Origin: Bdellovibrionales bacterium
Lineage (GTDB): Bacteria > Bdellovibrionota > Bdellovibrionia > Bdellovibrionales > UBA1609
Assembly (NCBI GenBank): GCA_050246815.1
Contig: JBFWVI010000015.1
Span: 30,983-61,120 of the forward strand
Length of the DNA stretch: 30,138 nt
Direction of reading: 5' to 3'
In this document: positions 2,421-22,386 of the stretch, piece by piece
How positions within the stretch are numbered: the first letter of the stretch is position 1
Layout of the letters: every line of letters starts with the position of its first letter
Notes under the pieces: model-generated
Seen by the model: the letters and a program-made list of their open reading frames with translations, nothing else
Database searches by the model: none
Told to the model about the DNA's origin: nothing
Position numbers and translations under genes: made by a program

Positions 2421-3338
2421 ATGAAAATCAGCACCGACACCAAAAGCGAGCAGTTTTCGCTCTTGCCTGAAGCCCCACAGCCGCAGCTGGCCGCCTACTC
2501 CGACTACCGGGTGTACTTGCGCGACTTTTACGAATACAAGCGCCGCCAAACTTCGGGATCGATTCGGCCTTATTCGTATGCCACTTTTTCTGCCGGAGCA
2601 GACATCCGTTCGCCCAATTATTTAAAAATGATCATCGAGGGCCAACGCAATCTTTCCAATGACATGGTCAAAAAATTCGCTAAAGCCTTGGGGTTGACCA
2701 AAGATGAGACCGAAGAGTTTTCAGCCCTTGTCGATTATAGCCAAGCCACCGACCCCTTGGATCGCAACCAGCACTTAAAAAAACTCTCTGAGCTGCGCGC
2801 CCAGCGCCAGGTGAAATCGGGCGAAATCAAAGCCGAAGCTTTGGACAAAGTCCCAAGTTGGGTGACCTGGGTGCTTTATGCCCTGGCCGAACAAAAAGAC
2901 GCCAAGTTCGATTACGACCGCCTATATGAAATCATGAAAGGCAAAGCCCAGCGCGACGACATTCGTCGTAGTCTGGGCCGCCTGGTGCAATCGGGAGATC
3001 TGACCATCGATCCTGAGACCGGTGACATCAACAAAGGCCGCGAGCTGATCTCGGGCAGTGAAGACATCCCGGTGGCTTTGGTGCGTAAACTTCAAAGTGA
3101 ATTGATCTACATGGCGCTTGAGGCGCTCTTTCAAGAGAACATCCAAGACCGCGAATTCGGCGCCATGACTGTCGCCCTGACCGAAGAGGAATTCGAGCAG
3201 CTGAAATTCGAATTGCGCCAATTCCGCAAACGTTGGTTTAAAGACGTGGCGGTCAAACGCAAATCGGGTAAAGGGGATCGGGTTTTTCAGATGAACATCC
3301 AGCTTTTCCCGCTGACCGCTCGTTCAACCCAGAAGTAA
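2421..3338 (+). CDS. TIGR02147 family protein (N-terminal HTH-like region, C-terminal DUF4423)
   Basis: Characteristic N-terminus YSDYRVYLRDFYEYKR...YSYATFS...SPNYLKMIIEGQRNLS and C-terminus REFGAMTVAL...VFQMNIQLFPLT. Confidence 0.9.
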   Translation: MKISTDTKSEQFSLLPEAPQPQLAAYSDYRVYLRDFYEYKRRQTSGSIRPYSYATFSAGADIRSPNYLKMIIEGQRNLSNDMVKKFAKALGLTKDETEEFSALVDYSQATDPLDRNQHLKKLSELRAQRQVKSGEIKAEALDKVPSWVTWVLYALAEQKDAKFDYDRLYEIMKGKAQRDDIRRSLGRLVQSGDLTIDPETGDINKGRELISGSEDIPVALVRKLQSELIYMALEALFQENIQDREFGAMTVALTEEEFEQLKFELRQFRKRWFKDVAVKRKSGKGDRVFQMNIQLFPLTARSTQK

Positions 3339-3349
3339 CTCGACCTTTT

Positions 3350-3384
3350 AAAAAACAAGAGCCAGGCTTTTAAGGGCCTGGCTC
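3350..3384 (-). terminator. Intrinsic terminator oriented for the minus strand
   Basis: 9-bp stem GAGCCAGGC/GCCTGGCTC (3359-3384). It is followed by TTGTTTTTT only on the minus strand; the plus strand continues ACAAG. Confidence 0.75.
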
Positions 3385-3555
3385 ACAAGAATTAATCAAT
3401 TAAAGGTCCCAAGAGGAATCACTTCTTTAAGCCTTAGCGACGAACTTAAAGGGGGCTTTACAGCACCCTAGACTTTCGAGGGGGGGAGGGGGAAAGCGCC
3501 CATCGCTAAGACTTACAGAAACAGCCAACGTCCAACTTCCACATACGTACAGCAA
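3350..3555 (-). ncRNA. Candidate sigma54-dependent structured small RNA (~200 nt; ends approximate)
   Basis: Bounded by a sigma54 motif (3567-3581) and a minus-strand terminator. 3423-3442 pairs with 3501-3520 (17 Watson-Crick pairs, 2 G-U that work only on the minus strand, 1 mismatch). This stem encloses a C-rich-loop hairpin and a GTAA-tetraloop hairpin. No credible ORF. Confidence 0.6.
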
Positions 3556-3565
3556 AGGATGTATT

Positions 3566-3582
3566 AGCAATCTGCGCGCCAA
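3566..3582 (-). promoter_or_regulatory. Putative sigma54 promoter of the candidate sRNA
   Basis: The minus strand reads TTGGCGCGCAGATTGCT, close to the TGGCAC-N5-TTGCW consensus. Confidence 0.75.
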
Positions 3583-4056
3583 GACGCAATGGGTCACAGA
3601 AAATAGGGGCTCAATTTCTCAAGTATCAATAGATTTCAGTTGGAGTTGGCAAAGCCGCATCAGATTAGGTTTTCAAGATTTGAAGTCCGAAAAAAGAGCC
3701 GACAAATAGCGTCACTCGGCCGCCGAATGGTCCCTTTGCGGCGCCAGCTCTTAACAAAAATTCACGAGTGACTAAGTAAAAAACGTTATGGTTGGGCAAA
3801 AGAATTTTGTGGTTATCAGTGAACTTGAGAGGGAAAACTTCCCGAAGAGCGCTTTCCCTCTCCCCCTCGAAATCGAAAATAGATGTAGCAAATAAACTGA
3901 GGATAATCTGCTCACATTTCCTCACACTAACGCGCGCGCTTAGCCTGAAATTTTGACCAAATCCCAGTCACGATGTCTTATTTTGAGACTGAAGAGACGG
4001 GAGTCTGTCTTTACGCCCCCAATTGCCGCAAAATTAAAGACGGGTGTGAGGGGCTT

Positions 4057-4569
4057 GTGCAAAAAATCATTCTAAGCCGATTTTTAATAATGACCGCCAC
4101 AGGTTTAATCCTTGGAGCCTTCTTTCAAAACTGCGGTTCTTATACGGCCATCAAATCGGGTTCGCCCCTGGTTTACAAAATCGACAATGGTCAAACGTTC
4201 ACCGCACAGGCTTTGTCGTCTGATGATCGTCAGGCTGTCTGTCGCGGGCAACACAATTGGCATTGTGTGATCCATCAGTTTCGGCCTGACAATACCCAAT
4301 CAAGCACACCCGGCGAAGTCTGCAACGGCGATTTTTGTGTGGATGCCACGTTGGTCCACCATGGCTCGGCAGAAGCTTTGGGCTCCTGCCGAGATTGCAC
4401 CGAGGCCGATGGCCAACCGGGCGGTCGATATCATTATGATGAAGTCTATTGTGGAAATCAGAACATCACCCAAGAGGGATCTGTGACAGCGGCCATCGTG
4501 GCCAACTCTTCGATCCCACAGCTCGCGTTGGCGGAGGCCCTGAATATATGTTTAATTGCAGCCGAATAG
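4057..4569 (+). CDS. Cys-rich lipoprotein of unknown function
   Basis: GTG 4057 is preceded by GAGGGG. The signal peptide ends in FFQNC, a lipobox type common in Bdellovibrio-like organisms. The mature part has 8 further Cys. Confidence 0.7.
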   Translation: MQKIILSRFLIMTATGLILGAFFQNCGSYTAIKSGSPLVYKIDNGQTFTAQALSSDDRQAVCRGQHNWHCVIHQFRPDNTQSSTPGEVCNGDFCVDATLVHHGSAEALGSCRDCTEADGQPGGRYHYDEVYCGNQNITQEGSVTAAIVANSSIPQLALAEALNICLIAAE

Positions 4570-5243
4570 TTTTTGCGTTGCTGATGGTGGCCTTTGGCTT
4601 TGAGGCCGCGGCCCATGTGCGTTTTACGGTTCCGGTGCCGCGCTCGCAGGCGGATGGGTTAAAGACACCTCCTTGTGGGAATATCCCGCGCACAGCCCAA
4701 GTCACCGAGCTTCGCCCCGGACAAGTGATGCAAATCAGCTGGACCGAGGTCATCAATCATCCGGGCTTTTTTTCGGTGGACATTTCGCAGGCCAATGACC
4801 AGAACTTCCAAGAGATCTGGCGTTTTGAAGACAACCAAAACACAGTCGGTTCACACAACTTCACCGGCACCATCACCATTCCCAACATCACTTGCGCCAA
4901 CTGCACGATTCGCCTTATTCAGCACATGCTTGAAGATCCCAACATGCCTTCGCTTTATTACTCTTGTTCGGATATCTCGATCGCGGCAGACAGTGGGGGC
5001 ACGGTGACTTTGCCGTCGCAACCCGGTGGCAATGGCGACTTGGGTGGCTCAGGCGGAAAATTAGGTAAACCAGGTCAGATGGCCGGTGGCTGTGGTCTGG
5101 TGGCCCGCACGAGCGATCGCTCGGGTGGTGGTCCCACGCCGCCGATGGTGGGCTTTATTTTGATGAGCCTGATACTGCCGCTCATCACCTGGCACCGACT
5201 AGGCCATGTGCCCAGTCGGGTTACTGCCAGGCGTCGTCGCTAG
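4548..5243 (+). CDS. SCE4755-family polysaccharide monooxygenase-like (LPMO-like, His-brace) protein with C-terminal membrane anchor
   Basis: GGAGG precedes ATG 4548. The signal peptide ends AAA and the mature protein starts with His (HVRFTVP). Motifs PCG, W-x-E-x-INHPG, CxNCTIRLIQ and YYSCSDI. Gly-rich linker, GGCG, TM helix and RRRR tail. Confidence 0.75.
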   Translation: MFNCSRIVFALLMVAFGFEAAAHVRFTVPVPRSQADGLKTPPCGNIPRTAQVTELRPGQVMQISWTEVINHPGFFSVDISQANDQNFQEIWRFEDNQNTVGSHNFTGTITIPNITCANCTIRLIQHMLEDPNMPSLYYSCSDISIAADSGGTVTLPSQPGGNGDLGGSGGKLGKPGQMAGGCGLVARTSDRSGGGPTPPMVGFILMSLILPLITWHRLGHVPSRVTARRRR

Positions 5244-5794
5244 AACCAATATTTCAAAGCCCCATTTAAAGAAAACGTGTCGGCACCCGAATTACTGACG
5301 AACAGGTAATTGGCGTTGGCGCCCACGGTGAACTCGCGCCGTTCAACAGTAGAACCTGCGATAGGCACGTCAAAGCCACCCAGCACGGCCAAACCCATGC
5401 GGGTGTCGGTGTCATCGCCGCTGGTGTCGCGGACCACTCCCGCACCGGCGCCTAAAAAAGTATGACGAACAAAGGTGTTCCCACTGAAGTTGTAAGTGCC
5501 TCGGGCCAGCAAGTGGCTTCGATCCAAGTCGGCCTTGCCCTGACCGTTACTGGAAAATGTTGAAAACTCCAAAGCTACGCCAATCGGCACATAGGGTTGA
5601 AATCCGATCTCGGCCCCAAACTCACCGGCGGTATTGTAATTTTCGTTGGTGTCTGAAAGCCCGGCGCGAACGCCGAAGTGGGGTTTCATGGCCTCAAGTG
5701 AGCCGGCCTCGGCCGGGGTCGGCATCGTCGAGGTTTGGGCCTGCGCCACAGTAGTAAGAATCAGTAGCGTCAGGGCCAAGAATGGTTTTTTCAT
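5240..5794 (-). CDS. Small outer-membrane beta-barrel protein
   Basis: AAAGGAG RBS, signal peptide (AQA), alternating amphipathic strands, C-terminal LKYWF beta-signal. Confidence 0.8.
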   Translation of the reverse strand: MKKPFLALTLLILTTVAQAQTSTMPTPAEAGSLEAMKPHFGVRAGLSDTNENYNTAGEFGAEIGFQPYVPIGVALEFSTFSSNGQGKADLDRSHLLARGTYNFSGNTFVRHTFLGAGAGVVRDTSGDDTDTRMGLAVLGGFDVPIAGSTVERREFTVGANANYLFVSNSGADTFSLNGALKYWF

Positions 5795-7370
5795 AGTTTC
5801 TCCTTTGATGGTTTGAGATCGCGGTTGGGATTTCGAGATTTGAATCTGAAAGTGGTTTAAGGTCTTGGCTGGCTGGCCCTTCGATCACTTTGCCATGGCA
5901 GTCGAAACGCGAGCCGTGGCAGGGGCAGTCCCAAGATTTTTCAACGCCGTTCCAATGGACCAGGCCACCTAAGTGGGGGCAGGCGGCGGAGTAGGCTTCC
6001 AGATCGCCCCGTTCGTTGCGGAACAGAGCCACTTTCCGTAAGCCATAGTTGATGACGGCCCCGTCATTGTAAGCCAAATTTTCAATCACTTGAGCCGATT
6101 GTGGTGAAATCCAATCGGCGTATTGCATGGCCACATTGGCGTTTTCCTTGATGTACTCAGTCAGTGCGCGCAGACGAAAGCGTGAGGGTTCATAGACATG
6201 AGCCCAAGAGTTCTCAAGTCGCAAAATCTGGTCGCGCACTAACAGCGCGCCCACCGTGGATTGGCTCAGGCCTGTTCCCGACTGTCCGGTGATCACATAG
6301 ACGTTTTCATTGTCCAAGGGGTTGTGGCCCAAGTAGGCCAAGCCATCGATAGATTCCATGATTTGGCCCGACCAGCGGTAAGCCACTTCGCTGGCAAACG
6401 GAAAGCGACTTTCGGTCCATTCTCGCAAACGCGCAAAACAATCCTCGGGGTGGTCATTTTGCCCGGTTTTATGATCCTCGCCACCAACAATTAAAAGATC
6501 GTGCAGTGAAGAATAGGGATGCGTGCGCAAGTAGTGGTAGGGTGTGCCGGTGTCCCAATAAAGGCCAAGGTGCACTTCATTTTTCGGAATTTTATAAGCC
6601 AAAACGTAAGAGCGATAAGGTGCTTGCTTAGTATGAATTGCGAAAACATTATTGATCGGCGTGTTTGTGGCCACCACCGCAGCGTGGGATTTGATCGAAT
6701 GGCCAGACGCCGTAATCACCGTGGCGCTTTTGCCGCCTTGAATCGTGGTGACTTGGCTGTGACAAAAGATGCGGCCTTTATTGGCCAACACTTGCTTGGC
6801 CAAGCCGCGCAGGTATTTTAGGGGATTGAGCTGGATCTGATTGGGAAAGATCAAGCAGTTGCCGGTTTCAAAGGTGGGCAGTGGCGCTTGCGAAGCTGCG
6901 TGCACATCGTTTAAACCGGCCCGGTGCGCGGCGCTCAATTCGCGCGGCAGCTCATCGTCGTTCAATTGAGCGGAATTTTCAAAGAGGTAACCACTGACTC
7001 TTTTGTAATCGCAATCGATCGCACTTTGAATCAGGATTTGGTCGACCGTATTCAGTGCCGCGACCTGGCTTTGGGCCACCAGGCGGGTGTCGGCGACGCC
7101 GTGCAACTCTTCAAGACGATGATAGCGAGTGTCCAAGGCGGCGGTGACATGGCCGGTGCTTAAGCCGGTTTGGCCCTCACCCAAATTTTGGCTTTCAAGC
7201 ACGCAGACCTTTTGGCCGCGTTCGCTTAGCAAATAAGCCGTGGTCAATCCGGCAATGCCCGCACCCACCACGCACACATCGCAGATCAAATTGTCACTCA
7301 AGGCCGGGCATGCCGGCATTTTGACGTCATCATGCCAGGGTGTTGATGTGGACGCGATCGAAGTTTTCAT
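5694..7370 (-). CDS. FAD-dependent oxidoreductase (DAO family) fused to a C-terminal Rieske 2Fe-2S domain (YhfW-like)
   Basis: DVCVVGAGIAG Rossmann motif. Rieske motifs CPHLG and WDCPCHGSRF. Start taken at ATG 7370 (MKTSIAS). Confidence 0.9.
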   Translation of the reverse strand: MKTSIASTSTPWHDDVKMPACPALSDNLICDVCVVGAGIAGLTTAYLLSERGQKVCVLESQNLGEGQTGLSTGHVTAALDTRYHRLEELHGVADTRLVAQSQVAALNTVDQILIQSAIDCDYKRVSGYLFENSAQLNDDELPRELSAAHRAGLNDVHAASQAPLPTFETGNCLIFPNQIQLNPLKYLRGLAKQVLANKGRIFCHSQVTTIQGGKSATVITASGHSIKSHAAVVATNTPINNVFAIHTKQAPYRSYVLAYKIPKNEVHLGLYWDTGTPYHYLRTHPYSSLHDLLIVGGEDHKTGQNDHPEDCFARLREWTESRFPFASEVAYRWSGQIMESIDGLAYLGHNPLDNENVYVITGQSGTGLSQSTVGALLVRDQILRLENSWAHVYEPSRFRLRALTEYIKENANVAMQYADWISPQSAQVIENLAYNDGAVINYGLRKVALFRNERGDLEAYSAACPHLGGLVHWNGVEKSWDCPCHGSRFDCHGKVIEGPASQDLKPLSDSNLEIPTAISNHQRRNYEKTILGPDATDSYYCGAGPNLDDADPGRGRLT

Positions 7371-7382
7371 AACCCGTGTTTT

Positions 7383-7398
7383 TGCAAAGTCCACGCCG
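7383..7398 (-). promoter_or_regulatory. Putative sigma54 promoter of the FAD/Rieske gene
   Basis: The minus strand reads CGGCGTGGACTTTGCA (GG-N10-GC with TTGCA). The predicted +1 falls within a few nt of ATG 7370. Confidence 0.55.
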
Positions 7399-7514
7399 CG
7401 CTTATAAAGCAATGGGACTTCGACAGGCCCGGCCCTTGAGGAATTTTGCCTCTGCATTCATGTGAACTGAGGCATGAACGGGATTCATCGCCGCGTTTAT
7501 TAAGGGGCCCAAGC

Positions 7515-7530
7515 TGGAAAGATTTTTGCA
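7515..7530 (+). promoter_or_regulatory. Putative sigma54 promoter of the hemerythrin gene
   Basis: TGGAAAGATTTTTGCA (GG-N10-GC with TTGCA) lies ~33 nt upstream of ATG 7563. Confidence 0.6.
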
Positions 7531-7562
7531 AGCATAGACCAGTAGACAAGGGGGAGGGGGAA

Positions 7563-8102
7563 ATGAGTCTCAATATTTATGATGTGTTGAAGAAAGATCA
7601 CAATAAGATCAAAAGTCTGCTTCAGGAATTGGTCGACTGCGAAATGGTGGACGGCATGCGCTGTCAGGATTTGGTAGAGGCTTTGCACTTTGAGTTGCTA
7701 CCGCACACGCATGCCGAAGAGGCGGTTTTTTACAATTCGTTGAGGTCCTTGCGCGCGGCCCGCCCAACCATAATGCATTCTTATGAAGAGCATATGGAAA
7801 TCGAAAATCTGCTGCGCGCACTGCAAATCCAAAGTGGCTTTGACGACCATTGGATCAACACGGCCCACAAATTGAAAGCCGCTATCGAACGGCATTTAAA
7901 AGAGGAAGAGGGGTCAATTTTTAATATGGCGCAAAGTTTATTTCTGCGCGAAGAAGAAAAAATGATGGGCGAAGCGTTTTTAAGGCTAAGGCCGCAAGTC
8001 GCAGAGGAAGGCCTCGTGCGAGTGACCTTGGACGCGATCGCCGATTTGATGCCGACGCGCTTTGCTGCGACGTTGCGCACTTTTGATTTGAATCCGAAGT
8101 AG
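7563..8102 (+). CDS. Hemerythrin/HHE cation-binding domain protein
   Basis: Motifs LKKDH, HTHAEEAVFY, EEH and HLKEEE. A G-rich SD precedes ATG 7563. Confidence 0.9.
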   Translation: MSLNIYDVLKKDHNKIKSLLQELVDCEMVDGMRCQDLVEALHFELLPHTHAEEAVFYNSLRSLRAARPTIMHSYEEHMEIENLLRALQIQSGFDDHWINTAHKLKAAIERHLKEEEGSIFNMAQSLFLREEEKMMGEAFLRLRPQVAEEGLVRVTLDAIADLMPTRFAATLRTFDLNPK

Positions 8103-8136
8103 CCATTGCAAGGCCGGCCGTGTTAGGTTTTTTGCC

Positions 8137-9180
8137 ATGATTAAAACAAAAGCTTACGCCGCCCAATCAGCCACTTCGCCACTTCAACCCTTTCAGTTTG
8201 AGCGTCGCGACCCGCGACCTGATGATGTGGTCATCGAAATTGCTTATTGTGGCATTTGCCATTCTGACATTCACACTGCACGAGGTGAATGGGGGCCGAC
8301 GGCTTACCCATGTGTCCCAGGCCATGAAATCGTGGGTCGTGTGATTCAGGTGGGCAAAAAGGTCAAGCGCTTCAAAGTCGGTGACCTTGCCGGTGTGGGT
8401 TGCTTTGTGGATTCGTGTGGAAAGTGTCCCAACTGCAAAACCGGTGAACAGCAATTTTGCCAAAAGCATACGGCTTTTACCTACAACAGCACCGAAATGG
8501 ACGGCAAAACCCCGACTCAAGGCGGTTACTCCAGCCACATCACGGTCAAAGACCAGTACGCTTTGAAAATCAAAAAGGGTTTGCCGTTGGATCGTATTGC
8601 GCCGCTTTTGTGCGCGGGCATCACGACCTATTCGCCGCTCAAACGATACGGCACTAAAAAAGGCAAAAAAGTGGGGGTTGTGGGTTTGGGTGGCCTTGGC
8701 CATATGGCTATCAAAATCGCCAAAGCCATGGGTGCGGAAGTGACGGTGTTTAGCACTTCCCCCGGCAAACAGGCTGACGCCAAAAAGTTGGGCGCAAAAA
8801 ATTTCGTAATCAGCACCGATGCCAATAACTTTGCGGCACATGCAGGCAAATTAGATCTGATCATCGACACCGTTTCAGCCAAACATGATTTTTCGCCGTA
8901 CCTAGGGTCTTTGAAGATGGACGGCACTATGGTTTTGGTGGGCGCAGCTCCCGAACCCAGTCAAGTCAGCGCCTTTGCCTTAATCATGGGTCGTAAGCGC
9001 CTGACCGGGTCGCTGATCGGCGGCATCAAAGAGACGCAAGAGATGTTGGATTTTTGCGCGAAGAAAAAAGTTCTCTCGGACATTGAGCTGATCCCGGCCA
9101 GCCAGATCAACGAAGCGTATGAGCGCACGATTAAAGCACAGGTCAAGTACCGCTTCGTGATCGACGCGAAGACTTTTTAG
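8137..9180 (+). CDS. NAD(P)-dependent zinc alcohol dehydrogenase (cinnamyl-ADH/YahK-like)
   Basis: CGICHSD, GHEIVG, structural zinc Cys cluster, GLGGLG and YRFVID. Confidence 0.95.
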   Translation: MIKTKAYAAQSATSPLQPFQFERRDPRPDDVVIEIAYCGICHSDIHTARGEWGPTAYPCVPGHEIVGRVIQVGKKVKRFKVGDLAGVGCFVDSCGKCPNCKTGEQQFCQKHTAFTYNSTEMDGKTPTQGGYSSHITVKDQYALKIKKGLPLDRIAPLLCAGITTYSPLKRYGTKKGKKVGVVGLGGLGHMAIKIAKAMGAEVTVFSTSPGKQADAKKLGAKNFVISTDANNFAAHAGKLDLIIDTVSAKHDFSPYLGSLKMDGTMVLVGAAPEPSQVSAFALIMGRKRLTGSLIGGIKETQEMLDFCAKKKVLSDIELIPASQINEAYERTIKAQVKYRFVIDAKTF

Positions 9181-9611
9181 TTCGCGTCCAGATGCTTCAA
9201 AATATGCGGGATGTCCGCTTTTTCCAAATCCTTGGCGATGAAAGTCATATTCTTTGCCGCCACCGCGCTGACTTGCTTTTTAATTTTGCCCAAAAGGTGC
9301 GGATTCGCGAAGACAGTCACATGTTGATAGAGCTTACCATGCTTGGCCGTTCTTAAAAGTTTGGCCAAAGTGTGGGCAAAATGGTCGGCGACCACTTCGG
9401 TGTGAGAATTGTGCGGCGCTAGCCGATGCGGTGTTTTGCTGCCGGCCCACTTGGCGTAACTTTGACCGAACTTGTCGGTTTTAAAATCATGCTCGCGACG
9501 GCGCCCCTTTTTATTGACCAGCGTGCGTTGCCATTTAAGCGGCAGACTTTTGGCATCACGCTTAAAGATTTTGGCTTCAGCGCGACTGGCAACCATAACC
9601 CATTCTTTCAT
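9177..9611 (-). CDS. Host attachment protein family (release-factor-like)
   Basis: Pattern WVMVASRAEAKIF...FA..LA..L...VFANPHLLGKI...IAKDL. AGGAG RBS. Confidence 0.8.
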   Translation of the reverse strand: MKEWVMVASRAEAKIFKRDAKSLPLKWQRTLVNKKGRRREHDFKTDKFGQSYAKWAGSKTPHRLAPHNSHTEVVADHFAHTLAKLLRTAKHGKLYQHVTVFANPHLLGKIKKQVSAVAAKNMTFIAKDLEKADIPHILKHLDAN

Positions 9612-9626
9612 TTGGAACTCCTTTTA

Positions 9627-9660
9627 AGAAAAGGGCCGCGGCCGGAAAACCACGACCCTT
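9627..9660 (-). terminator. Probable intrinsic terminator or attenuator after hsp20
   Basis: Minus-strand stem GGGTCGTGG/CCGCGGCCC (with G-U pairs) followed by TTTTCTT. Confidence 0.55.
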
Positions 9661-9667
9661 CCAAAGA

Positions 9668-10126
9668 TTATTGAACTGCGATTTGTTTGGCGGCGGTGCT
9701 TTTTGTTTTGGGAACACGGATTCGCAAAACACCGTTTTTAAAATTGGCCTCAATCTTCTTTTCGTTGATTGGTTCCGGTAGGGTGAAGCTGCGCACGTAA
9801 GAACCGTAATTGATTTCGGACAAGTATTGCTTGTCGGTTTCTTCTTTCTTTTCTTCTTTGCGCTCGGCGCGAACGGTCAGTCGGTCGCCGTCCACTTCGA
9901 CTTTGACTTCTTCTTTGTCGATGCCGGGCAAATCAAAATTCATTTGGTAAGACTCGGCGTCTTCTTTGACTTCGCACGAGGGCGAAAAAGGGAACTCGGA
10001 GCCCTTGGCACCGTTGCGCTCGCTGATCATTTCATTCAAAAGACGGTCAAAGCTGCTCTCCATTCGGGCCATTTCGCGGAAAGGATTAGAGGTTTGGCGG
10101 CCAAACCAGCGTTGCAGTCCTGACAT
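9668..10126 (-). CDS. Hsp20/alpha-crystallin small heat-shock protein
   Basis: Motifs DLPG, YGSYVRSFTLP and FKNGVLRIRVPK. AAGGAG RBS before ATG 10126. Confidence 0.95.
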   Translation of the reverse strand: MSGLQRWFGRQTSNPFREMARMESSFDRLLNEMISERNGAKGSEFPFSPSCEVKEDAESYQMNFDLPGIDKEEVKVEVDGDRLTVRAERKEEKKEETDKQYLSEINYGSYVRSFTLPEPINEKKIEANFKNGVLRIRVPKTKSTAAKQIAVQ

Positions 10127-10165
10127 ATTGTACTCCTTCTGTGAGGTTGTTTGTGCAGTGGGAGT

Positions 10166-10181
10166 AGCAAGCCGGATGCCG
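10166..10181 (-). promoter_or_regulatory. Putative sigma54 promoter of hsp20
   Basis: The minus strand reads CGGCATCCGGCTTGCT, 40 nt upstream of the ATG. Confidence 0.7.
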
Positions 10182-10271
10182 ACCGCAAAACACACGTCAA
10201 ATGCAACAGTTTTGATTTAAGTGAGGGGAGGGAGACAAAATATCTCAACCTGGCGGGCAAAATGTCACGCG

Positions 10272-10943
10272 TTACACATCGGCTTCACGTAATGAAATTT
10301 TGCCGTCGATCAGATAAATCTCCCGATCGGCTTGTCTGGCATAGCTGGGCTCGTGCGTCACCAGGGCGATTGTGGTGCCATGCTGCTGGTGAATACGTTT
10401 TAAGATCGACATCACCACGGCGCTGTTTTTAGTGTCTAAATTACCGGTGGGTTCATCGGCAAAAAGGTAGCGGGGACGCAGCACCAGCGCGCGCGCGATG
10501 GCCACGCGCTGCTGCTGGCCTCCTGACATTTGCCCCGGGAACTTGTGCTTTTGATCAACGACATCCAGTTCTTCCATCAAAGCGATGGCCTCGGGAAATA
10601 ATTTTTTTTCAAGGCCCAGATTGCGTGCGGGCAGCAAAACATTTTCAAGGGCTGTCAGCTCGGGCAGCAAATAATGAAATTGAAAAACAAACCCGACTTT
10701 TTCATTGCGAAAGCGGTGAAGGTTGTCGACCGATAAGCGCGCCACATCTTGTCCATCGATCAACACGCGACCCTGGCTGGCGTGATCCAAAGTGCTGATA
10801 ATGTAAAGCAAAGTACTTTTACCGCTGCCCGAGCGACCCGAAATAGAGACGAATTCGGCGTCTTTGATTTTGAAATCCAAGCCATGCAGCACTCGCTGCG
10901 GCGGTTGGCCAAATTCTTTGATCAGCCCCTGTCCTTCGATCAT
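10272..10943 (-). CDS. ABC transporter ATP-binding protein (LolD/MacB type)
   Basis: Walker A GRSGSGKST, signature MSGGQQQR, ADEPTGNLD, VTHE. ATGA overlap with the permease stop. Confidence 0.95.
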   Translation of the reverse strand: MIEGQGLIKEFGQPPQRVLHGLDFKIKDAEFVSISGRSGSGKSTLLYIISTLDHASQGRVLIDGQDVARLSVDNLHRFRNEKVGFVFQFHYLLPELTALENVLLPARNLGLEKKLFPEAIALMEELDVVDQKHKFPGQMSGGQQQRVAIARALVLRPRYLFADEPTGNLDTKNSAVVMSILKRIHQQHGTTIALVTHEPSYARQADREIYLIDGKISLREADV

Positions 10944-12184
10944 GATTCCGCCCGAATGATGTCCATGGGGGTCATGCGGCTGGCCTCCCAAGCGGGGATC
11001 AGGCTGGCGATCAGCGAGGCCACATTGGCGGTGATAAACGCGGTCACATAAATCGACCAGTCATAACTGATGCGCAGGTTGTGGCTGCCGCCGATTTCAA
11101 AACCAAAGTCGATGGAGCCAAACCAAACACAAAGCCAAAAACCCAAGATCATTCCCAAAAATCCACCGGCCAAGCCAAGCAAGGTGCCCTGATACAAGAT
11201 CAATTCCAAAATTCGCCGTGGCGAGTAGCCAATGGCGCGCAAGATGGCAATCTCGCGTCTTTTTTGACTGATCATGATGGTTAAAACATTGTAAATGCCG
11301 AACGCGGCCACAATTAAAATCGCAGTGGTGATAAAGTAGCGGGTGAAGTCTTGCACCTTAATCACTTCCATAAAGGCCTTGTTGGCCTCTTGCCAGTCTT
11401 CCACTTTGTCGCGAGTCATGGCCTGCCAAGAGTCAGCCAGATCGGTGGATTTGTCGATGTCCAGCAAAGACACGGCGATGGCGCTGACCTGGCCAGGGCT
11501 TTTTGCCAAAACCTGCACATTGTCCAAATGAGCAAAGGCCACCGAATCATCAAACTGCTGATTGCCATAGTGGACGATACCCGCCACTTTGTAAGGCCTG
11601 GGCGCAGTGCGCCCGCTGCTGACATTTAAAACTTGGTCTAAGCGCGCGCCCAATTTTTTGGCCACGCCACTGCCGATCACCAGATTGTTGGCGCCAGAGC
11701 GCAGTTTTAAGAAGGAACCCTCTTTCATGTATTTTTCGACACTGGTCAGGCGGGCATGGCGCTCTGGGATCACTCCCAAAAGTCCAACCGAAACCGAAAA
11801 TTTTCCGCTCGTTAAAAGCGCGTTGGTGCTTAGGCGCGGCGAAAAGTCAAAAACCTGGGGATCGCTTTGCAATCGATCGACCCAGCCCTGGTAGTGCTGC
11901 AATTTGGTTTCTTCGCGTTTGCCCCCGGGGGGCAGTCGCCAAAGCAGTCGCGGATTTTCGCCGTAAAGAGCGGTGGTCACTTGCTGTGCTTCAATATTTT
12001 GCTCTGAGCCAGAAATCAGGATGTGGGCGGTGTTGTTGAGCAACTGCTCCGAGATATAAGCCCGCATGCCCAATTGCACCCCAGAAATGCTGACATAAAG
12101 CAAAGTGCCAAAGCTGATGCCCAGCAAGATCAAGAGCGTTTGTTTTTTGCGCGCCATCAACTGACGCCAGGACAAAAAGAACAT
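10940..12184 (-). CDS. ABC transporter permease (MacB/FtsX/LolC-E family)
   Basis: N-terminal TM, large periplasmic domain, KRREIAILRAIG, three C-terminal TMs and PAWEASRMTP. Confidence 0.92.
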   Translation of the reverse strand: MFFLSWRQLMARKKQTLLILLGISFGTLLYVSISGVQLGMRAYISEQLLNNTAHILISGSEQNIEAQQVTTALYGENPRLLWRLPPGGKREETKLQHYQGWVDRLQSDPQVFDFSPRLSTNALLTSGKFSVSVGLLGVIPERHARLTSVEKYMKEGSFLKLRSGANNLVIGSGVAKKLGARLDQVLNVSSGRTAPRPYKVAGIVHYGNQQFDDSVAFAHLDNVQVLAKSPGQVSAIAVSLLDIDKSTDLADSWQAMTRDKVEDWQEANKAFMEVIKVQDFTRYFITTAILIVAAFGIYNVLTIMISQKRREIAILRAIGYSPRRILELILYQGTLLGLAGGFLGMILGFWLCVWFGSIDFGFEIGGSHNLRISYDWSIYVTAFITANVASLIASLIPAWEASRMTPMDIIRAES

Positions 12185-12185
12185 T

Positions 12186-12962
12186 TTATTCCTTGGGCAC
12201 TAGGATTTCGTCGTCGGGCAAAAGCTCGCCACCCGTAATTTCAGCGGATAGGCCATCGGTCAATCCCACTTCGACTTTAATTTTACGGCTGTGGCCTTTG
12301 CGGTTCACCAGCAAGGTGCCGCTGCGAAGCGCTTTATAGGGCACTAAAGTGCCCTTGACCTGGCCGATTTCAACCGACACGTCCGCTGTCATGCCGGGCA
12401 AAATGCTGGCATCCAAGTTGTCCACTTTGATGTTCGCTATGAATTCGTCGTCCTTGGGGAAGATTGCAGTCACCTGGCCAGCTAGAGTTTGGTTGCGCAA
12501 AGATTCAAAAGAAACTTTGGCCACTTGACCGGGACGTATGCGCAAAGCGCTTTCTTGTTCTAAAGAAAGTTCCAGATAGCGGTCCTTTAAATTTTCTAGA
12601 CGTAAAATAGTCGAATTCGGCAGGGCTGTTTCACCTTCAAAAAGCGAAATCAAACTGACTGTCCCGGCAAAGGGGGCACGAAAAACAGCGCTGGATTCAA
12701 GCTGAATTAGCCGTTGGCCCTTTTCGACTTGATCGCCCTCGCGCACAAAGCGCTCTTTGACCGTGGACAGCACGCCCACCTTCACTTCGAAGCGCTGGTT
12801 AGATTTGACCTTGCCCAAGCCATACACCGCTTCGGTGATCTGGCCTTCGGCAGGTTTGACGCGATTGTATTTACGGTTCTGCGCAGTCGTGCCATACCAG
12901 GCGCCCGCGCCCAAAAGGATAAACAAAGGGACCAAGATCAGGGCCCATTTCAAACGACTCAT
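12186..12962 (-). CDS. Efflux periplasmic adaptor (membrane fusion protein), short form
   Basis: GAGG RBS before ATG 12962 (MSRLKWALIL). Lipoyl-like VREGDQVEKGQ...RAPFAGTV with essentially no alpha-hairpin between the halves. LPGMTADV. Confidence 0.85.
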   Translation of the reverse strand: MSRLKWALILVPLFILLGAGAWYGTTAQNRKYNRVKPAEGQITEAVYGLGKVKSNQRFEVKVGVLSTVKERFVREGDQVEKGQRLIQLESSAVFRAPFAGTVSLISLFEGETALPNSTILRLENLKDRYLELSLEQESALRIRPGQVAKVSFESLRNQTLAGQVTAIFPKDDEFIANIKVDNLDASILPGMTADVSVEIGQVKGTLVPYKALRSGTLLVNRKGHSRKIKVEVGLTDGLSAEITGGELLPDDEILVPKE

Positions 12963-13063
12963 AGTTACCTCTTCATCAAGGCGTATATCAAAAGTTAGGC
13001 GGGTGGGTAACAAAGAGGTTTTTTTACGGGGGGCGCCAAAGATCATATGTTGCGTAGATCGAT

Positions 13064-14233
13064 CTAAAATTGCCGTAATCGCCAAAATGCGACCAAACTG
13101 ACCAGGGCTTCCAGCAAACCGATGATCAAAAACAATTGCCCAAGGCTGGGCCCATTTGGCACGGCACTTAGCGCGCCACCTAAAAACACTGCCAGCGGGT
13201 AAAGCCCTTGGCTCAACAAGCGCCGCGCGCCAAAGACCACACCGCGCTCCTCGGGGGCAGTCAATTGCACCCACAGGGTTTGATTGGCCGAATTAATCAC
13301 AGGCATCATCAATTGGCGGATCGCCAACCCCACCGCCCACAAGCCGATCAACCCAGAAGCGCCCACCAGGATGCGACCGGCGATCGCCCCGATCAAAGTT
13401 CCCCCCGCGATCACCGATCCCAACCGCCGCTTGAGCGGCACCAGCAGCACCAACAAAGCGCCCAGGGTCAGGCCCACAGCCGAGAGCGTGTTGACCATAG
13501 CCAAACTTTTTTTATCGCCTGCGGTCGCGGTCAACACCAGGGCCGCCACTAGGCCGGCCAGCAAGCCATGAAAAAAATTGGCCCAACAAAAATGCAGTTG
13601 CAGGTGGCGAAGTTGGGGGTGACCCAGGATTTTGTGAATACCTGCGCCCCAGCTTTGCTTGGCACGCGCTGGGATTTCGGGAAAACTCACTGTTTTTAGC
13701 GCGAACAAAGCCAACACATAACTGATCGCGTCCATCCACAAAATGCCCTTGAAGCCCATTTTCTCATAGGCGATCACGCCCAAAACCGGCGCTAAAATCA
13801 AAGGGCCGTTTTCAATCAGCGCCACCAGTCCTTGGCTTCGCATGAAAAATTCTGGCCGCGCCAACAAAGCCGTGCTGGATTGAAAGGCCAAACCCAGCGC
13901 CGATTCGACCGCGCCAGTTAAAAATAAAAACATCATTAGGGCACTGAGGTTGAAAAGATCAAAACGCAGCAGGGTGCCGGCCAATATAGTCAGCACTAGC
14001 AAAATCAAATTGCTGCCGGCAATGACATTTTTCAGCGGAAACCGGTCCACCAGGTGGCCGGCGAAAAGGCTTAGATAAATATTGGGCATCAACTTGGCAA
14101 ACACGGCGATGCTCAGCCAATAGGGGCTTTGGGTTTGTTCATAGACCCAAAGCGAAACTGCAAAGCCGGTCAAACCGCTGCCCAACAACGACACCAGTTG
14201 GCCCAGCCAAAGCGTCAAAAAGTTTCTAGACAT
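13064..14233 (-). CDS. MFS transporter (macrolide-efflux/DHA3-like exporter)
   Basis: MSRNFLTLWLGQLVSLLGSGLT start, GHLVDRF motif, ERGVVFG and many TM helices. The start overlaps the stop of the HExxH gene. Confidence 0.9.
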   Translation of the reverse strand: MSRNFLTLWLGQLVSLLGSGLTGFAVSLWVYEQTQSPYWLSIAVFAKLMPNIYLSLFAGHLVDRFPLKNVIAGSNLILLVLTILAGTLLRFDLFNLSALMMFLFLTGAVESALGLAFQSSTALLARPEFFMRSQGLVALIENGPLILAPVLGVIAYEKMGFKGILWMDAISYVLALFALKTVSFPEIPARAKQSWGAGIHKILGHPQLRHLQLHFCWANFFHGLLAGLVAALVLTATAGDKKSLAMVNTLSAVGLTLGALLVLLVPLKRRLGSVIAGGTLIGAIAGRILVGASGLIGLWAVGLAIRQLMMPVINSANQTLWVQLTAPEERGVVFGARRLLSQGLYPLAVFLGGALSAVPNGPSLGQLFLIIGLLEALVSLVAFWRLRQF

Positions 14234-15020
14234 GAACGCCTTTCGCGAAAGCGTGGATGTTTTGTTGGCCTGTGGCCGTAAAGTAGCGGGCATTTTCACT
14301 TTGTGAAAGCCGCTCGATCAAAAATTCAAAGGACTTTTGACCTTCTTGGGCCGCGTGAGTCACTCTTTCAAGGTCTAAATCTTCTGCGCCCGCAGTTGCC
14401 AGCAGTTGGCGCCGCCAGTTGAGCAGCCCCGCATAAACGCCGGCGGCATGGTAGCAGCGGTCCAGCTCCCAAAATTGATTGCGATTTTCTTGATGCTTAC
14501 GCCAGGTGATGTGCACTTTGGGCGCTGTGCGGGCGTCAAAGTCGTCGCTTAAGATTTCACCGCGTAAAATGGATTGGTTGATTTCTTGGTGGATGGCCTC
14601 GTGGTAAAGGTTTTCCGCCAAAGCCCAAGTTGAAGGCGCCGAAAACAAAGTGTTGGGCGGGATGTGCACCAAGGCTTTGTTTGAAATAAAAACGCAGCCC
14701 GGCCAATTGGGGAATGAGGCCGAGGTAATACGTTCATCCTCACCCCAGTACTCGCGGCGTAGCTCCATCCAAAAGACAAATCGTATGTGACGTTGAGCAT
14801 AGGCTGCAATCGCCGGCTCCACTTGGTGCAAGTGTGCCCAGGCTTCACCGATCAAATCCAAGTGGGCGTCGTGGGCGACGCTTAAGCGGTGTGAGGGCAG
14901 GGGCAATTGGGCAAGGCCGTTTTCAAGATCGGGTTGAATCAGGCGCGGCGCCAAGTGCCCGGGCAGGGGTGAGCTTTGGCGCAGCAGTTGCTTGTGATGG
15001 GGTGTGGGCAGAGTCAACAT
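14226..15020 (-). CDS. aKG-HExxH family protein (putative Fe(II)/2-oxoglutarate-dependent peptide beta-hydroxylase)
   Basis: Motif order TSASFPNWPGCVF ... LAENLYHEAIHQ ... ITWR ... YHAAGVY matches the HExxH-plus-distal-His architecture of this family. GGAGG RBS. Confidence 0.75.
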   Translation of the reverse strand: MLTLPTPHHKQLLRQSSPLPGHLAPRLIQPDLENGLAQLPLPSHRLSVAHDAHLDLIGEAWAHLHQVEPAIAAYAQRHIRFVFWMELRREYWGEDERITSASFPNWPGCVFISNKALVHIPPNTLFSAPSTWALAENLYHEAIHQEINQSILRGEILSDDFDARTAPKVHITWRKHQENRNQFWELDRCYHAAGVYAGLLNWRRQLLATAGAEDLDLERVTHAAQEGQKSFEFLIERLSQSENARYFTATGQQNIHAFAKGVHV

Positions 15021-15022
15021 GG

Positions 15023-15397
15023 TTACCTCCCAATGTCCGAGCCGCGTTGGTCGCCCAACTTTTCCAGCTTCATAAAAAAACGCGGCACCGCTTCGGGAAT
15101 CAGTTGGTGGGTGCGCTTGACCAAAAATTCAATTTTTTCAAGTGTGCTCAGTTGCTGCGTGGGCACCAGCTCTGCCAGGCGCAAACGAATTTTGTTCAGC
15201 TTGGCCCGTGCAGTCAGATGGTTTTCAGAGTTCAGGGTGCTGTGTGGGGCGACTCGCCCCAGGCGTTCCAAGCGCTCCTGGGGCGAGAGGGTGGGATCAG
15301 GCAGAAGTTCTTCAAGCCGGCGGCTCACGGCCATCAGCTCGCGGCAGACTTCATCAAAAGACTCTTCATGGGCTTCAGGTAGTGTGATGGTGATCAT
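15023..15397 (-). CDS. Hypothetical 124-aa protein with internal R-L-x-x-hydrophobic-hydrophobic-P repeats
   Basis: GGAG RBS. The stop is 2 nt before the HExxH start. Repeats RLEELLP, RLGRVAP, RLAELVP and RTHQLIP. Confidence 0.7.
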   Translation of the reverse strand: MITITLPEAHEESFDEVCRELMAVSRRLEELLPDPTLSPQERLERLGRVAPHSTLNSENHLTARAKLNKIRLRLAELVPTQQLSTLEKIEFLVKRTHQLIPEAVPRFFMKLEKLGDQRGSDIGR

Positions 15398-15418
15398 GAA
15401 AAACTCCGCCCGGGTGGG

Positions 15419-15775: not shown

Positions 15776-16131
15776 GGGGGCGACATGGCTTCGACGCGGG
15801 TCGTGAAACTTCAGGAGCATGCAGGGGATGGTATGAGGACCTCTTTAAAAACATACCAAATGTATTCGGCAATACCGAACACGCACTTGCTGCTTAATTG
15901 ACAGCAACGCAAATCTGGTTGTCGGCGATGCGACCAGGCTAGCGCAATAATGTCGCACCGGCTGCAGGGTGTTTTCTCCAGGCCACTGCAGCCTAAAAAT
16001 TCTGGGGGAGGGGCCAAGGGAAGTCTGTCGCTGGACGTCCTCTGGCCGACCTAAAATAAGCGACTAAGCATGTAGCCCGCCTGAATGTGGAACTCTTGCG
16101 GACGGGGGTTCAATTCCCCCCGCCTCCACCA
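15776..16131 (+). ncRNA. ssrA: Transfer-messenger RNA
   Basis: 5' GGGGGCGACATGGCTTCGAC. 3' T-arm GGGGGTTCAATTCCCCC followed by CGCCTCCACCA, with the G3-U alanine identity pair. The tag ORF 15868-15897 encodes GNTEHALAA-stop. Confidence 0.97.
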
Positions 16132-17524: not shown

Positions 17525-17560
17525 GATCTCGTTCACTAATAAATAGAAATGGAGATAGTT

Positions 17561-19858
17561 ATGCTGCAAGCAGAATTTCAAAGAGACAATAAACGCGAAT
17601 TTGACGTAGCAATCGAAGGAATGACTTGCGCCTCGTGCGTTTTCCGAATTGAGAAATCAGTATCTAAAGTTCAAGGGATTGATTCAATATCAGTTAACCT
17701 TGCGACTGAAACCGGAAAGGTAATTTTAGCTGACGACCGATTGAGTGAAGACGATGTCATTCGCGCAATTGGTAAAGCTGGCTATAAAGCTGAGCTGATT
17801 TCAAACGAGGTCGCGCCAAAGACTGACAATAAAGCCGCCGCTCTCCGCCAGGAGCGAACACGCCTATATATCGCGATTATTCTTTCAACTCCACTAGTCC
17901 TTCCAATGTTACTTGAACCGTTTGGTATTTCGGCAATGCTGCCTGCGTGGGCGCAGCTTGCGCTTGCCGCTCCTGTTCAGTTTTGGTTGGGCGCTCGGTT
18001 TTACAAGGCCGGTTGGTCGGCTCTCAGGGCTCGATCTGGAAATATGGATCTTTTGGTATCGATCGGAACTACAGCTGCATTCGGATTAAGTCTTTATTAT
18101 ATGTGGAAGAACTTCGGTGAGTCCCACGCTCACGGCGGTGCGCATCTTTATTTTGAAAGTGCAGCCGTCATAATTACGCTTGTTCTTCTCGGGAAATACC
18201 TTGAATCGCGAGCAAAACAACAGACATCTGCTGCGATTAAAGCGCTCCAAGCTCTCCGACCCGACTCAGCCATTCTCGTATCAGGAGGACAAGAGCTTGA
18301 AGTTCCTTTGAGCCAAATTAGACTGGGCGATCAAGTTCGAATCCGCCCTGGAGCAAAAGTGCCGGTTGATGGAATTGTGATCGAAGGCGAAAGCCAAATT
18401 GATGAATCTCTGATTACAGGTGAAAGCCTTCCAGTAGCAAAGATTGCTGGCGACAAAGTCACAGGCGGATCGGTCAATACTGACGGGCGATTACTTGTTA
18501 GAACAACAGCATTAGGTTCAGAAACAACACTGGCTCGAATCATTCGCCTAGTCGAAAGCGCTCAAGCAGGCAAAGCACCTATTCAGCGCCTCGTTGATAA
18601 AGTTAGCTCCGTGTTCGTTCCGGTCGTGATGCTCATTGCACTTGTAACGTTAGTTGGCTGGGGATTAACGACAGGTAATTGGGAGCATGCTATTCTTAAC
18701 GCTGTCGCTGTACTTGTCATCGCATGTCCATGTGCTTTGGGCCTAGCCACACCGACCTCAATTATGGTCGGTACAGGTCTCGCGGCGAAAGTCGGAATTC
18801 TCATAAAGGATGCTGAAGCGCTTGAGCTGACTCACTCGGTTACGGCTGTTGCATTCGATAAAACCGGTACACTCACAGAGGGAAAACCACGGCTCAACAA
18901 CTTAGTTTCGTTCGATGGTAATTCATCGCGATTACTGCGATTAGCTGCCGCAGTTCAGCTCGGAAGTGAGCATCCACTTGCTAAAGCGGTCGTTCAAAAA
19001 GCTGAGCAGGATCAAGTAAGCCTTCCGGAAGCTACTTCAGTTAAGGCACTTCCTGGAAAAGGTGTTGAAGGCACGGTGGAAAGCCAACGAATCGCAATTG
19101 GCACCAAAAAGCTCATGATTGAAAGAGGTATAGACATCTCAAAGCATGAGTACAAAGAAACAAAGTTCTTAATGGCTGGCGAAACGGTCGCTTACATTTC
19201 GGACCTTGATTCACGACTCGTTCTGGGCGTGATGAGTTTCTCTGATCGGATCAAAGATTCTGCACGAGAAACCGTAGCGGAGCTTATCACTCGCGGTATT
19301 AAGCCAATCATGATCACCGGCGACAATCAGCAGAGCGCTATGCGTGTAGCGCGGGAGCTGGGAATTGCAGAAGTTCGTGCAGAAGTTTTGCCAGAGGAAA
19401 AATCTCAGGTGATCGAAAAACTTAAGGCTGAGGGCTATCGAGTTGCGATGGTTGGTGACGGTATTAATGATGCTCCGGCTTTAGCGGCCGCTAACGTGGG
19501 TTTTGCAATGTCGACCGGAGCTGATGTGGCAATGCACTCAGCAGGCATTACACTGATGAATGGCAACCCTCTTCTGATCCCCGATGCAATCGAAATATCA
19601 AGACGGACTTACTCGAAAATTCGTCAGAATTTGTTTTGGGCCTTTATTTATAACGTCGTTGGCATTCCTCTAGCGGCGGCAGGCTTACTTACTCCTGTTG
19701 TTGCAGGCGCTGCGATGGCGTTTAGTAGCGTAAGCGTGGTTTCAAATTCGCTATTGCTCAAAAGGTGGAAAGCAGCTAGCCGCAGGCCAGATGAGATGAA
19801 AATCTCTGGGCCTGCATACGAAGAGTGGACGGCAATTGAAGCTCGTCGAGGTATGTAA
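17561..19858 (+). CDS. copA: Copper-translocating P1B-type ATPase
   Basis: HMA motif [40 protein letters not shown] and MAFSS. GGAG favours ATG 17561 (alternative 17549). Confidence 0.95.
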
Positions 19859-20871
19859 TGGGCATACAAGTTTTAGTTAAAAATTTGAATCAAGATTTTA
19901 CTGCCGCCCCGAATGAAACCGTACTCACGGGAGCTTTGCGCAACGGCATTAATTTTCCTCACTCCTGCCAAAACGGGAGATGCGGAATGTGCAAATCAAG
20001 ACTTCAGAGCGGAGAAGTTGATCATCTTGCTCATAACAAATTCACATTGACCGACGAAGAAAAAGTATCGGGACTCATTCTAGCCTGCAAAGCCATTCCA
20101 AAAACTGACGTAGTAGTTAGCTGGGTTGCTGAAGAAGAGGAATTTGCTAACTCACAATCCATTGAAACAAAGGTAGTCCAGAAAAACCGACTAACACACG
20201 ACACATGGCGAGTTGTACTCGAAGCTGAATCCCACAAGTTCAAATTCAAACCTGGACAGTACTCATTGCTGAACATTACAGGTTTCCCGCCTAGAAATTA
20301 TTCTATGTCTAATCAGCCAAATGACCGTCAGCTTGAATTCTACATCCGCCAGTTGCCTGGTGGCCTCGTAAGTAACTACGTCAATGAGACATTAAAAGAG
20401 GGGGACTCGGTAACAGTCATAGGGCCGCTAGGAAGTTCGTACTTACGAGTAGTGCATGCAGGTCCAATTTTGCTTGTCGCTGGCGGCTCTGGGATTGCGC
20501 CAATAAAATCGATTTTAGATGCAGCGATTACTAACGGAATGCGACAAGCGATCTACTTGTATTTCGGGGTCCGCGAAGAACAAGACGTTTACCTGCTCGA
20601 TCATTTCCGAAAACTAAGAGAACAGTTTCCAAATTTTGTTTTCAATATAGTGGTTGATCGCGGCTCGACGAACAAAGCATATCGATCAGGTCGACTCAAC
20701 GACGCAATTAAAATTGATTTCCCAGCCTTTCACGGCAAGTGGAACGCATATTTAGCGGGTCCACCCCAAATGGTGGAGAGTGTCTCAAACTTAATCATTA
20801 TGAATGGCATTTCAAAATCGACTGTGTGGTCAGACCCATTCGTTACAACGGAACATGGAGCAGTGAAATGA
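19858..20871 (+). CDS. 2Fe-2S ferredoxin / FAD-NAD(P)H oxidoreductase (AscD / oxygenase-reductase type)
   Basis: SCQNGRCGMC...LAC ferredoxin motif, RNYS, GPLG, AGGSGIAP and YLAGPPQMV. TAATG overlap with copA. Confidence 0.9.
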   Translation: MGIQVLVKNLNQDFTAAPNETVLTGALRNGINFPHSCQNGRCGMCKSRLQSGEVDHLAHNKFTLTDEEKVSGLILACKAIPKTDVVVSWVAEEEEFANSQSIETKVVQKNRLTHDTWRVVLEAESHKFKFKPGQYSLLNITGFPPRNYSMSNQPNDRQLEFYIRQLPGGLVSNYVNETLKEGDSVTVIGPLGSSYLRVVHAGPILLVAGGSGIAPIKSILDAAITNGMRQAIYLYFGVREEQDVYLLDHFRKLREQFPNFVFNIVVDRGSTNKAYRSGRLNDAIKIDFPAFHGKWNAYLAGPPQMVESVSNLIIMNGISKSTVWSDPFVTTEHGAVK

Positions 20872-21416: not shown

Positions 21417-21418
21417 TC

Positions 21419-21449
21419 TTGACCTTCCAATGATTGGAAGGTGTATTCT
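21419..21449 (+). promoter_or_regulatory. CueR operator/promoter for cueR
   Basis: TTGACC-19 bp-TATTCT containing a perfect ACCTTCC-N7-GGAAGGT. Confidence 0.9.
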
Positions 21450-21474
21450 GGGTTTGAAAGTAAATGGAGGTTTT

Positions 21475-21861: not shown

Positions 21862-21881
21862 ACATTTTTCCCGGAGGAATA

Positions 21882-22292: not shown

Positions 22293-22321
22293 CGTGAATT
22301 CGAGAATTCTGAAAATAAGAC

Positions 22322-22352
22322 TTTACCTTCCAATAGATGGAAGGTGGAGGAT
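22322..22352 (+). promoter_or_regulatory. CueR operator/promoter for the multicopper oxidase
   Basis: TTTACC-19 bp-GAGGAT containing a perfect ACCTTCC-N7-GGAAGGT. Confidence 0.85.
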
Positions 22353-22386
22353 GTAGGAGATCGGATTAATTGAATAGGAGACTTTT

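Follow-up and report, generated by a model that had tools for sequence, protein, structure and literature searches.

We analyzed a 30,138-nt stretch of a contig from a Bdellovibrionales bacterium, referred to below as the window. Near its left end, a TIGR02147/DUF4423 gene (2421..3338, plus strand), whose product gives a weak N-terminal HTH match, converges on a region (3350..3582, minus strand) that an earlier note, made from the sequence of the window, had proposed to encode a small RNA. We found all the features claimed for this region in place on the minus strand. A sigma-54 (−24/−12) promoter motif is present at 3582–3566, and transcription would start at about 3555–3553. A 15-nt unit with the consensus GYNGWACGTTNGYTG, which the earlier note had missed, lies at the predicted 5′ end of the transcript (leader unit 1, 3553–3539) and is followed 17 nt later by a second copy (leader unit 2, 3536–3522). 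The 5′ arm of a long stem (3520–3498) then folds onto a 3′ arm at 3445–3423. Of the 20 stem positions that had been proposed to pair (3520–3501 with 3442–3423), 19 do so on the minus strand, and the two G-U pairs said to work on that strand only are indeed mismatches on the plus strand. Two hairpins that had been described between the arms are both part of the predicted minus-strand fold: a short one (3497–3472), closed by GCUUUC/GAAAGU, that displays a 14-nt C-rich loop (3491–3478), and a second small one (3469–3451). Downstream of the stem, an intrinsic terminator with a U tract (3384–3350) was called on the minus strand only and is also found in the predicted fold.

Taken alone, the promoter motif is weak, because the strict sigma-54 pattern has 28 matches across the 3.4-Mb genome and the one at 3582–3566 is just one of them. 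The minus-strand fold is stable (z = −3.4, with none of 200 shuffles equally stable); the plus-strand fold reaches z = −3.1, with 1 of 200 shuffles equally stable. Given this plus-strand value and the 28 occurrences of the promoter pattern, the single sequence is at most suggestive.

We searched 61 genomes by BLAST and obtained 13 non-self matches, 11 of which proved to be true homologues on reading; two short matches (L012 and L014) covered the terminator tail only and were dropped. Two covariance models were built, R1 from 12 sequences without their promoters and R2 from 54 sequences with their promoters. After removal of L096 and two antisense shadows from 79 R1 matches, 76 were retained. 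R1 matches occur in 51 of 109 genomes of the window's own family and in 53 of the 151 genomes of an order sample. The motif TGG-N8-TTGC lies upstream of 72 of the 76 matches at a nearly fixed distance; of the other four, two carry one-base variants and two lack the motif. Since R1 lacked the promoter, this conservation is independent of the search. The sigma-54 motif claimed for the window is a property of the family, and an RpoN domain was found among the proteins encoded in the genome. On these sequence grounds, transcription by sigma-54 RNA polymerase is likely.

We then examined the structure in an alignment of 54 sequences made by MAFFT from sequence only (alignment A5). Each of the 17 pairs in the long stem has two-sided changes, and 89.9% of the stem cells are paired. 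The structure as a whole is paired at 86.1%, versus 32–46% in slid controls, and none of 500 shuffles scored as high; kin sequences can beat shuffles without structure, so we place the weight on the slid controls and on the variety of pair types. The stem cells comprise 630 Watson-Crick, 183 G-U, and 27 A-C combinations, and this excess of G-U over A-C fixes the minus strand. All five closing pairs of the C-loop hairpin also show two-sided changes, in an alignment (A4) that was fitted to the model and leans towards it. Only 21 of 74 members contain an ATG frame of at least 10 codons, as a small peptide would need. Covariation of the long stem, together with the G-U/A-C asymmetry, bears out the proposal of a structured RNA gene on the minus strand. 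That the gene is real is very probable on this comparative evidence, and we take it to be a non-coding RNA gene that is conserved in Bdellovibrionales.

The relatives differ in shape from the ∼200-nt transcript first proposed. In 57 of the 76 matches, a U-rich tail follows directly after the long stem. Thus, the family core measures ∼110–150 nt (∼90 nt in the minimal form) and mostly ends right after the stem; the separate terminator is correct for the window, but it is a local, lineage-specific addition that inspection by eye showed in the window and, as a similar hairpin, at two loci of the same genus. The second small hairpin, also present at the locus, varies across the family and is missing in several lineages. 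The smallest form comes from two f3 genomes: after the promoter it has a single leader unit, then one hairpin whose loop reads UUUC8U, and finally a U tract. Carriers have one copy of the gene, apart from one genome with a tandem pair. In this pair (L040, G012:C49:18369-18952), a clear sigma-54 motif was seen at the first copy only. Searches with R1 (E ≤ 1) gave no paralogues in the genome of the window, and two patterns gave no matches in viral contigs.

R2 (E ≤ 0.001) matched 62 of the 151 sampled genomes of the order. By family, matches were found in 25 of 42 genomes of the window's own family plus the genome of the window itself, in 18 of 21 for f2, 3 of 3 for f5, 1 of 1 for f6, 11 of 20 for f12, 2 of 5 for f3, and 1 of 5 for f7, with none in 42 genomes of f10 or in the 11 genomes of five small families. 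The f7 match (genome G042) keeps the promoter and leader only. All 18 named records that carry the motif are MAGs of Bdellovibrionales, Pseudobdellovibrionaceae, or Bdellovibrionaceae, so the guess that relatives would be found in Bdellovibrionota was right and can be narrowed to the order Bdellovibrionales. The large family f10 probably holds the cultured Bdellovibrio strains. Among 121 of its genomes, 25 gave weak matches only (best, 25.4 bits), and the 20 places read, out of 28, proved to be promoters or leader-like stretches with no stem and no C loop; the syntenic sites of five f10 genomes gave nothing above 14.1 bits. Failure to find the RNA in this family would explain why the RNA family has been missed. 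Outside the order, the phylum sample gave one clear match. In the class of that match, two of nine genomes carry a similar element composed of promoter, stem, C stretch, and U tract, with no leader units. These elements are possible distant members of the family.

In the whole window, only a tmRNA (15776–16131) reaches the gathering cut-off of Rfam 15. At the locus, the best match at E ≤ 10 scores 20.2 bits against a cut-off of 70 and is driven by the terminator, and in 14 homologous loci nothing matched across the RNA at E ≤ 0.5, in agreement with the earlier statement that the element belongs to no recognised family. No description of this RNA was found in the accessible parts of the literature covered, a scope that had subscription journals and preprint and motif-survey supplements outside it; one genome-wide RNA motif survey does not mention Bdellovibrio in the portion of its main text that was available (PMC11109978). 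Apparently, this is an order-wide, uncatalogued small RNA family, of a known functional kind but with a build of its own.

The leader units are part of this build. Two units at a 17-nt period are present in 60 of 74 members and several members have one unit only. The first unit begins 10–17 nt after TTGC in all 74 scored members (13–14 nt in 53 of them), and one-unit forms keep the same distance. It is the sequence of the units that is conserved; their mutual pairing is maintained only at the self-complementary ACGU. A hairpin between the two units was rejected beyond these four bases, despite a two-sided change in one sequence. The strict promoter-plus-unit pattern was found in 17 of 201 genomes, 16 times at the RNA and once before a gene, and the reversed control gave none. 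When the genome of the window was scanned with a weight matrix of the unit, most of the best matches (78 of 88) fell inside genes. The strict pattern and the matrix scan thus lend little support to the unit as a common regulon motif. We read the leader units as a predicted binding site tied to expression, at the DNA or RNA level. The doubled element points to a putative regulator.

Leader units also occur apart from the C loop. In G042, the promoter and both units are found at the syntenic site before a protein-coding frame, with no C loop. The frame (L162:2556-3200) appears lipoprotein-like, and both its start codon and its ribosome-binding site fall within a long predicted stem; the element is possibly an RNA gene turned mRNA leader. 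On contig C3 of the window's genome, another sigma-54 motif stands before a gene with just one unit between them. Both cases favor a role of the units in expression. Twin ACGT units of about the same period, intergenic and with no C loop, were also seen at L099/L163, L124, and L103/L164 (genus g75 of f10) and at L140 and L145; the similarity among the g75 copies goes beyond the units, so these may represent a separate RNA.

A TIGR02147 gene lies convergent within 1.5 kb downstream of 59 of the 76 matches, as the earlier note had guessed, and the end of the protein match is often less than 100 nt from the RNA or overlaps it. The TIGR02147 protein, with its weak HTH match, is a candidate binder of the leader units. 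A DUF4423 protein of B. bacteriovorus appears among the proteins raised during growth in prey in the part of a published study open to us (PMC12546842). At five f10 loci (L154–L158), TTATCCACA/TTTTCCACA motifs stand in the place of the RNA downstream of the TIGR02147 orthologue, and an apparent tmRNA is nearby in four of the five. These motifs are DnaA-box-like. In the window, the tmRNA is found at 15776, whereas four of 77 loci have a tmRNA no more than 1.5 kb from the RNA, so the intervening DNA of the window (3973–15400) may be inserted. This stretch holds an LPMO/BIM1-like gene (4449–5243) and stress genes. It also holds one minus-strand run (10272–15397) of an ABC exporter, a membrane-fusion protein, an MFS transporter, and a 124-aa frame, together with a weak peptide-hydroxylase match with HExxH (E 3.6e-4); the run is possibly a peptide-modification cluster. 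Further on, a copper-resistance cluster (17549–25280) encodes a CopA-type ATPase, CueR, and a multicopper oxidase, with a recombinase-domain fragment at its end.

We turn to the C-rich loop. The longest C-run of each member (4–9 nt) is predicted to be unpaired with a probability above 0.8 in 69 of 74 members, so the exposed C-rich loop claimed for the window extends to the family. The C-run is the sequence that is kept in all lineages while the letters of the stem change, and its retention in an exposed position points to pairing with a G-rich RNA. Hfq was not found in any of the genomes searched for it (1 of 1 and 5 of 5), which fits small RNAs that pair through loops, like RepG.

We scanned the genome of the window for targets. 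Perfect matches of at least 6 nt to the 14-nt loop are present at −20 to −4 of 248 of 2045 ATG genes, versus 13 in coding controls. For the loop hairpin, perfect matches of at least 8 nt are present in 101 of 2973 start regions (our own ORF calls), versus 6–8 in three control windows. GGGGGA ranks third among the hexamers that precede ATG starts in this genome, and the loop has pairing partners available. Ordinary G-rich Shine-Dalgarno sequences would, however, produce an excess of loop complements at start codons by themselves. Thirty target candidates have matches of at least 9 nt, and two of them were tested for conservation or co-variation. The best single site, a 14-nt perfect complement of the loop at the start of a hemerythrin gene (7550–7563, plus strand, 4 kb away), is missing from all 11 homologues and was rejected. 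By eye, most of the hemerythrin homologues (L222–L232) have a sigma-54-like TGG...TTGCA upstream, and all 12 genomes with the hemerythrin gene also carry the RNA. The other candidate is a small, single-copy LuxR-HTH gene (G000:C43:3172; L233–L302) present in 144 of the 151 order genomes. Its start region, GGAGCAAGGATG, is almost invariant and is accompanied by a conserved upstream motif, TGTCAGACTTT..ATA.AGG. We take the start region to resemble a CsrA site, and the gene looks as if it has a conserved regulatory leader of its own. The G-rich start matches the f1 loop well, and does so even where the RNA is lacking, but in f2 carriers the pairing is poor. Site and loop showed no co-variation (p = 0.33 in a permutation test of 37 pairs, and 0.93 when confined to the family); with a site that is conserved and does not co-vary, the gene was kept just as a candidate for f1.

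Poly-G ribosome-binding sites are also found in lineages that lack the RNA, and their share has no consistent relation to it: the share is higher with the RNA in f1, lower in f2, and equal in f12. Three unsure genomes were left out of this comparison, and the minimal form was afterwards recognized in two of them. In one genome, a heuristic predicted signal peptides for 82 of 162 genes with G5 sites (51%) versus 50 of 143 genes with AAGGAG (35%, p = 0.008). This excess of signal peptides among genes with poly-G sites is a lead only. Within the window itself, a near copy of the C-loop hairpin lies on the opposite strand 350 nt away (3843–3872, plus strand) and forms its own hairpin; a minus-strand transcript of this copy would be complementary to the loop. 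No similar sequence was found in the other fetched loci.

The best explanation, which we favor somewhat over even odds, is anti-Shine-Dalgarno repression by the C-rich loop. The long stem would be a scaffold that holds the loop open and, in most relatives, would also serve as the terminator. The loop would base-pair with ribosome-binding sites rich in G on a group of mRNAs and so shut off their translation, with no need of Hfq. As for the leader units, present once or twice, we see them as a putative site at which a regulator binds to adjust expression of the RNA gene itself, and not as the pairing seed. Because the target tests were neutral or negative, the role of trans-acting translational repressor, already put forward in the earlier note, is suggested by anatomy and analogy. 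A bolder version would have the RNA act as a sigma-54-driven mimic of the 16S anti-Shine-Dalgarno that damps the poly-G class of ribosome-binding sites as a life-cycle switch of uncultured predators, bringing their secretome down as a block, and would make it a counterpart, possibly a remote relative, of Pxr. We regard this version as distinctly unlikely.

Other readings were weighed against repression by the C-rich loop. CsrB-type RNAs titrate an RNA-binding protein, and decoys of the CsrB/RsmZ type carry many GGA motifs in loops. The leader units or the C-run could likewise titrate such a protein: the single-stranded units are repeated and conserved as sequence, not as a hairpin, in a copy number of one or two; similar units stand in a few mRNA leaders; no conserved mRNA target was found in our tests; and CsrA is encoded in the genome. 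However, there are at most two units, and GGA is not constant in them, with A or T about equally frequent before ACGT, so CsrA fits poorly. Moreover, with 16 of the 17 unit patterns at the RNA itself and the weight-matrix matches mostly inside genes, there is no large regulon to relieve, and the distant forms keep the C-rich stretch without the units. We therefore consider a protein decoy unlikely. It is less likely still that the element acts only in cis, adjusting the 3′ end of the mRNA from the convergent TIGR02147 gene as an antisense or terminator structure. The frequency of this neighbor (59/76), often within 100 nt or overlapping, would suit such a function, but the 17 matches that lack the arrangement keep the stem and the C-run, one genome has two tandem copies, and the invariant C loop and the leader, which are not complementary to the end of the TIGR02147 gene, would be left unexplained. 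The least probable reading, to which we give very little credence, is a second 6S-like decoy of RNA polymerase or a DNA-level feature without an RNA product. The long irregular rod recalls 6S, and conserved repeats near a promoter could be pure DNA sites, but compensatory changes in which G-U is favored on one strand are characteristic of an RNA. The earlier note had named 6S as a known family to be checked. The canonical 6S of this genome (RF00013, 62.3 bits), its only 6S match, is found on contig C66, and 6S was not among the matches listed at the locus at E ≤ 10.

A last alternative concerns ancestry. We fetched eleven Pxr loci with the published probe, three of which were confirmed by the Rfam model at 125–129 bits. 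Pxr (RF01812) and this RNA both have a sigma-54 motif, a long imperfect stem, an exposed C-run loop, an intrinsic terminator, a length of ∼110 nt, and a predatory host. All eleven Pxr loci share the sigma-54 motif, a GGAC/GGGAC leader at a similar distance, the long stem, and a UUC7A loop, and the accessible sections of two studies report that a C-to-A change in the Pxr loop abolishes function (PMC5568312, PMC5684412). This RNA could thus be a remote Pxr homologue with the same C7 loop, a life-cycle switch shared by descent among predatory deltaproteobacteria-like lineages. However, neither model scores the other family: the Rfam Pxr model (cut-off 80 bits) gave no match in five genomes at E ≤ 1, and R2 reached at best 6.1 bits (E 0.2) on true Pxr loci. 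On the unit matrix, the leaders of Pxr do not rise above background, with 11–36% of random windows scoring as well. Pxr lies downstream of the NtrC-like regulator pxrR/nla19, whereas this RNA faces a convergent TIGR02147 gene, and no pxrR/nla19-like regulator adjoins it in the window. According to the part of the study at hand, Pxr arose within one myxobacterial suborder (PMC5684412). This RNA also differs in that its C loop usually sits on a short hairpin in a multiloop upon the long stem, and in its doubled 15-nt leader units. We consider common descent with Pxr highly improbable. From what could be consulted of the respective reports, Pxr is processed into long and short forms and controls development (PMC10217877), and its direct targets are predicted but unconfirmed (PMC11928866).

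The C-rich loop has parallels beyond Pxr. In RepG of Helicobacter pylori, as described in the available part of one report, the loop of the terminator is rich in C and U and base-pairs with a G-repeat located in the leader of an mRNA (PMC8295292). The minimal f3 form of our family has the same build, a C/U-rich loop on a terminator hairpin. RepG comes from a different phylum, however, and the sigma-54 motif and leader units belong to this RNA; no RepG-type family was among the Rfam matches listed at the locus, at the homologous loci, or in the minimal forms. Given the lack of a cross-model score and leaders unlike those of Pxr, the RNA is a member of neither Pxr nor RepG. Among Firmicutes and Actinobacteria, unpaired C-rich stretches of RsaE/RoxS, RNAIII, and 6C RNA act against ribosome-binding sites. 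These RNAs have several C-rich loops, whereas this RNA has one main C loop, and the 6C model scored the minimal forms below threshold (26.8 bits versus a cut-off of 47, E ∼3).

Within the same order, the regulatory RNAs reported for Bdellovibrionales in the literature consulted are the eight of B. bacteriovorus from one transcriptome, the attack-phase RNAs APsRNA1-7 and merRNA; in the portion of that study available to us they are intergenic, 100–650 nt long, and, per the authors, without homologues elsewhere (PMC3627812). By eye, none of the eight sequences in its supplementary figure S1 combines twin units with a long stem that carries a C-run loop. The present family adds to these an order-wide RNA with strong covariation, a defined promoter type, and an alignment ready for use, in organisms in which Hfq was not found, and it could offer a testable handle on how predators switch growth phase. 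Taken together, these comparisons suggest by analogy that the RNA likely works like Pxr or RepG. Beside Pxr, it would be a second natural example of a design that joins a sigma-54 promoter to an exposed C loop.
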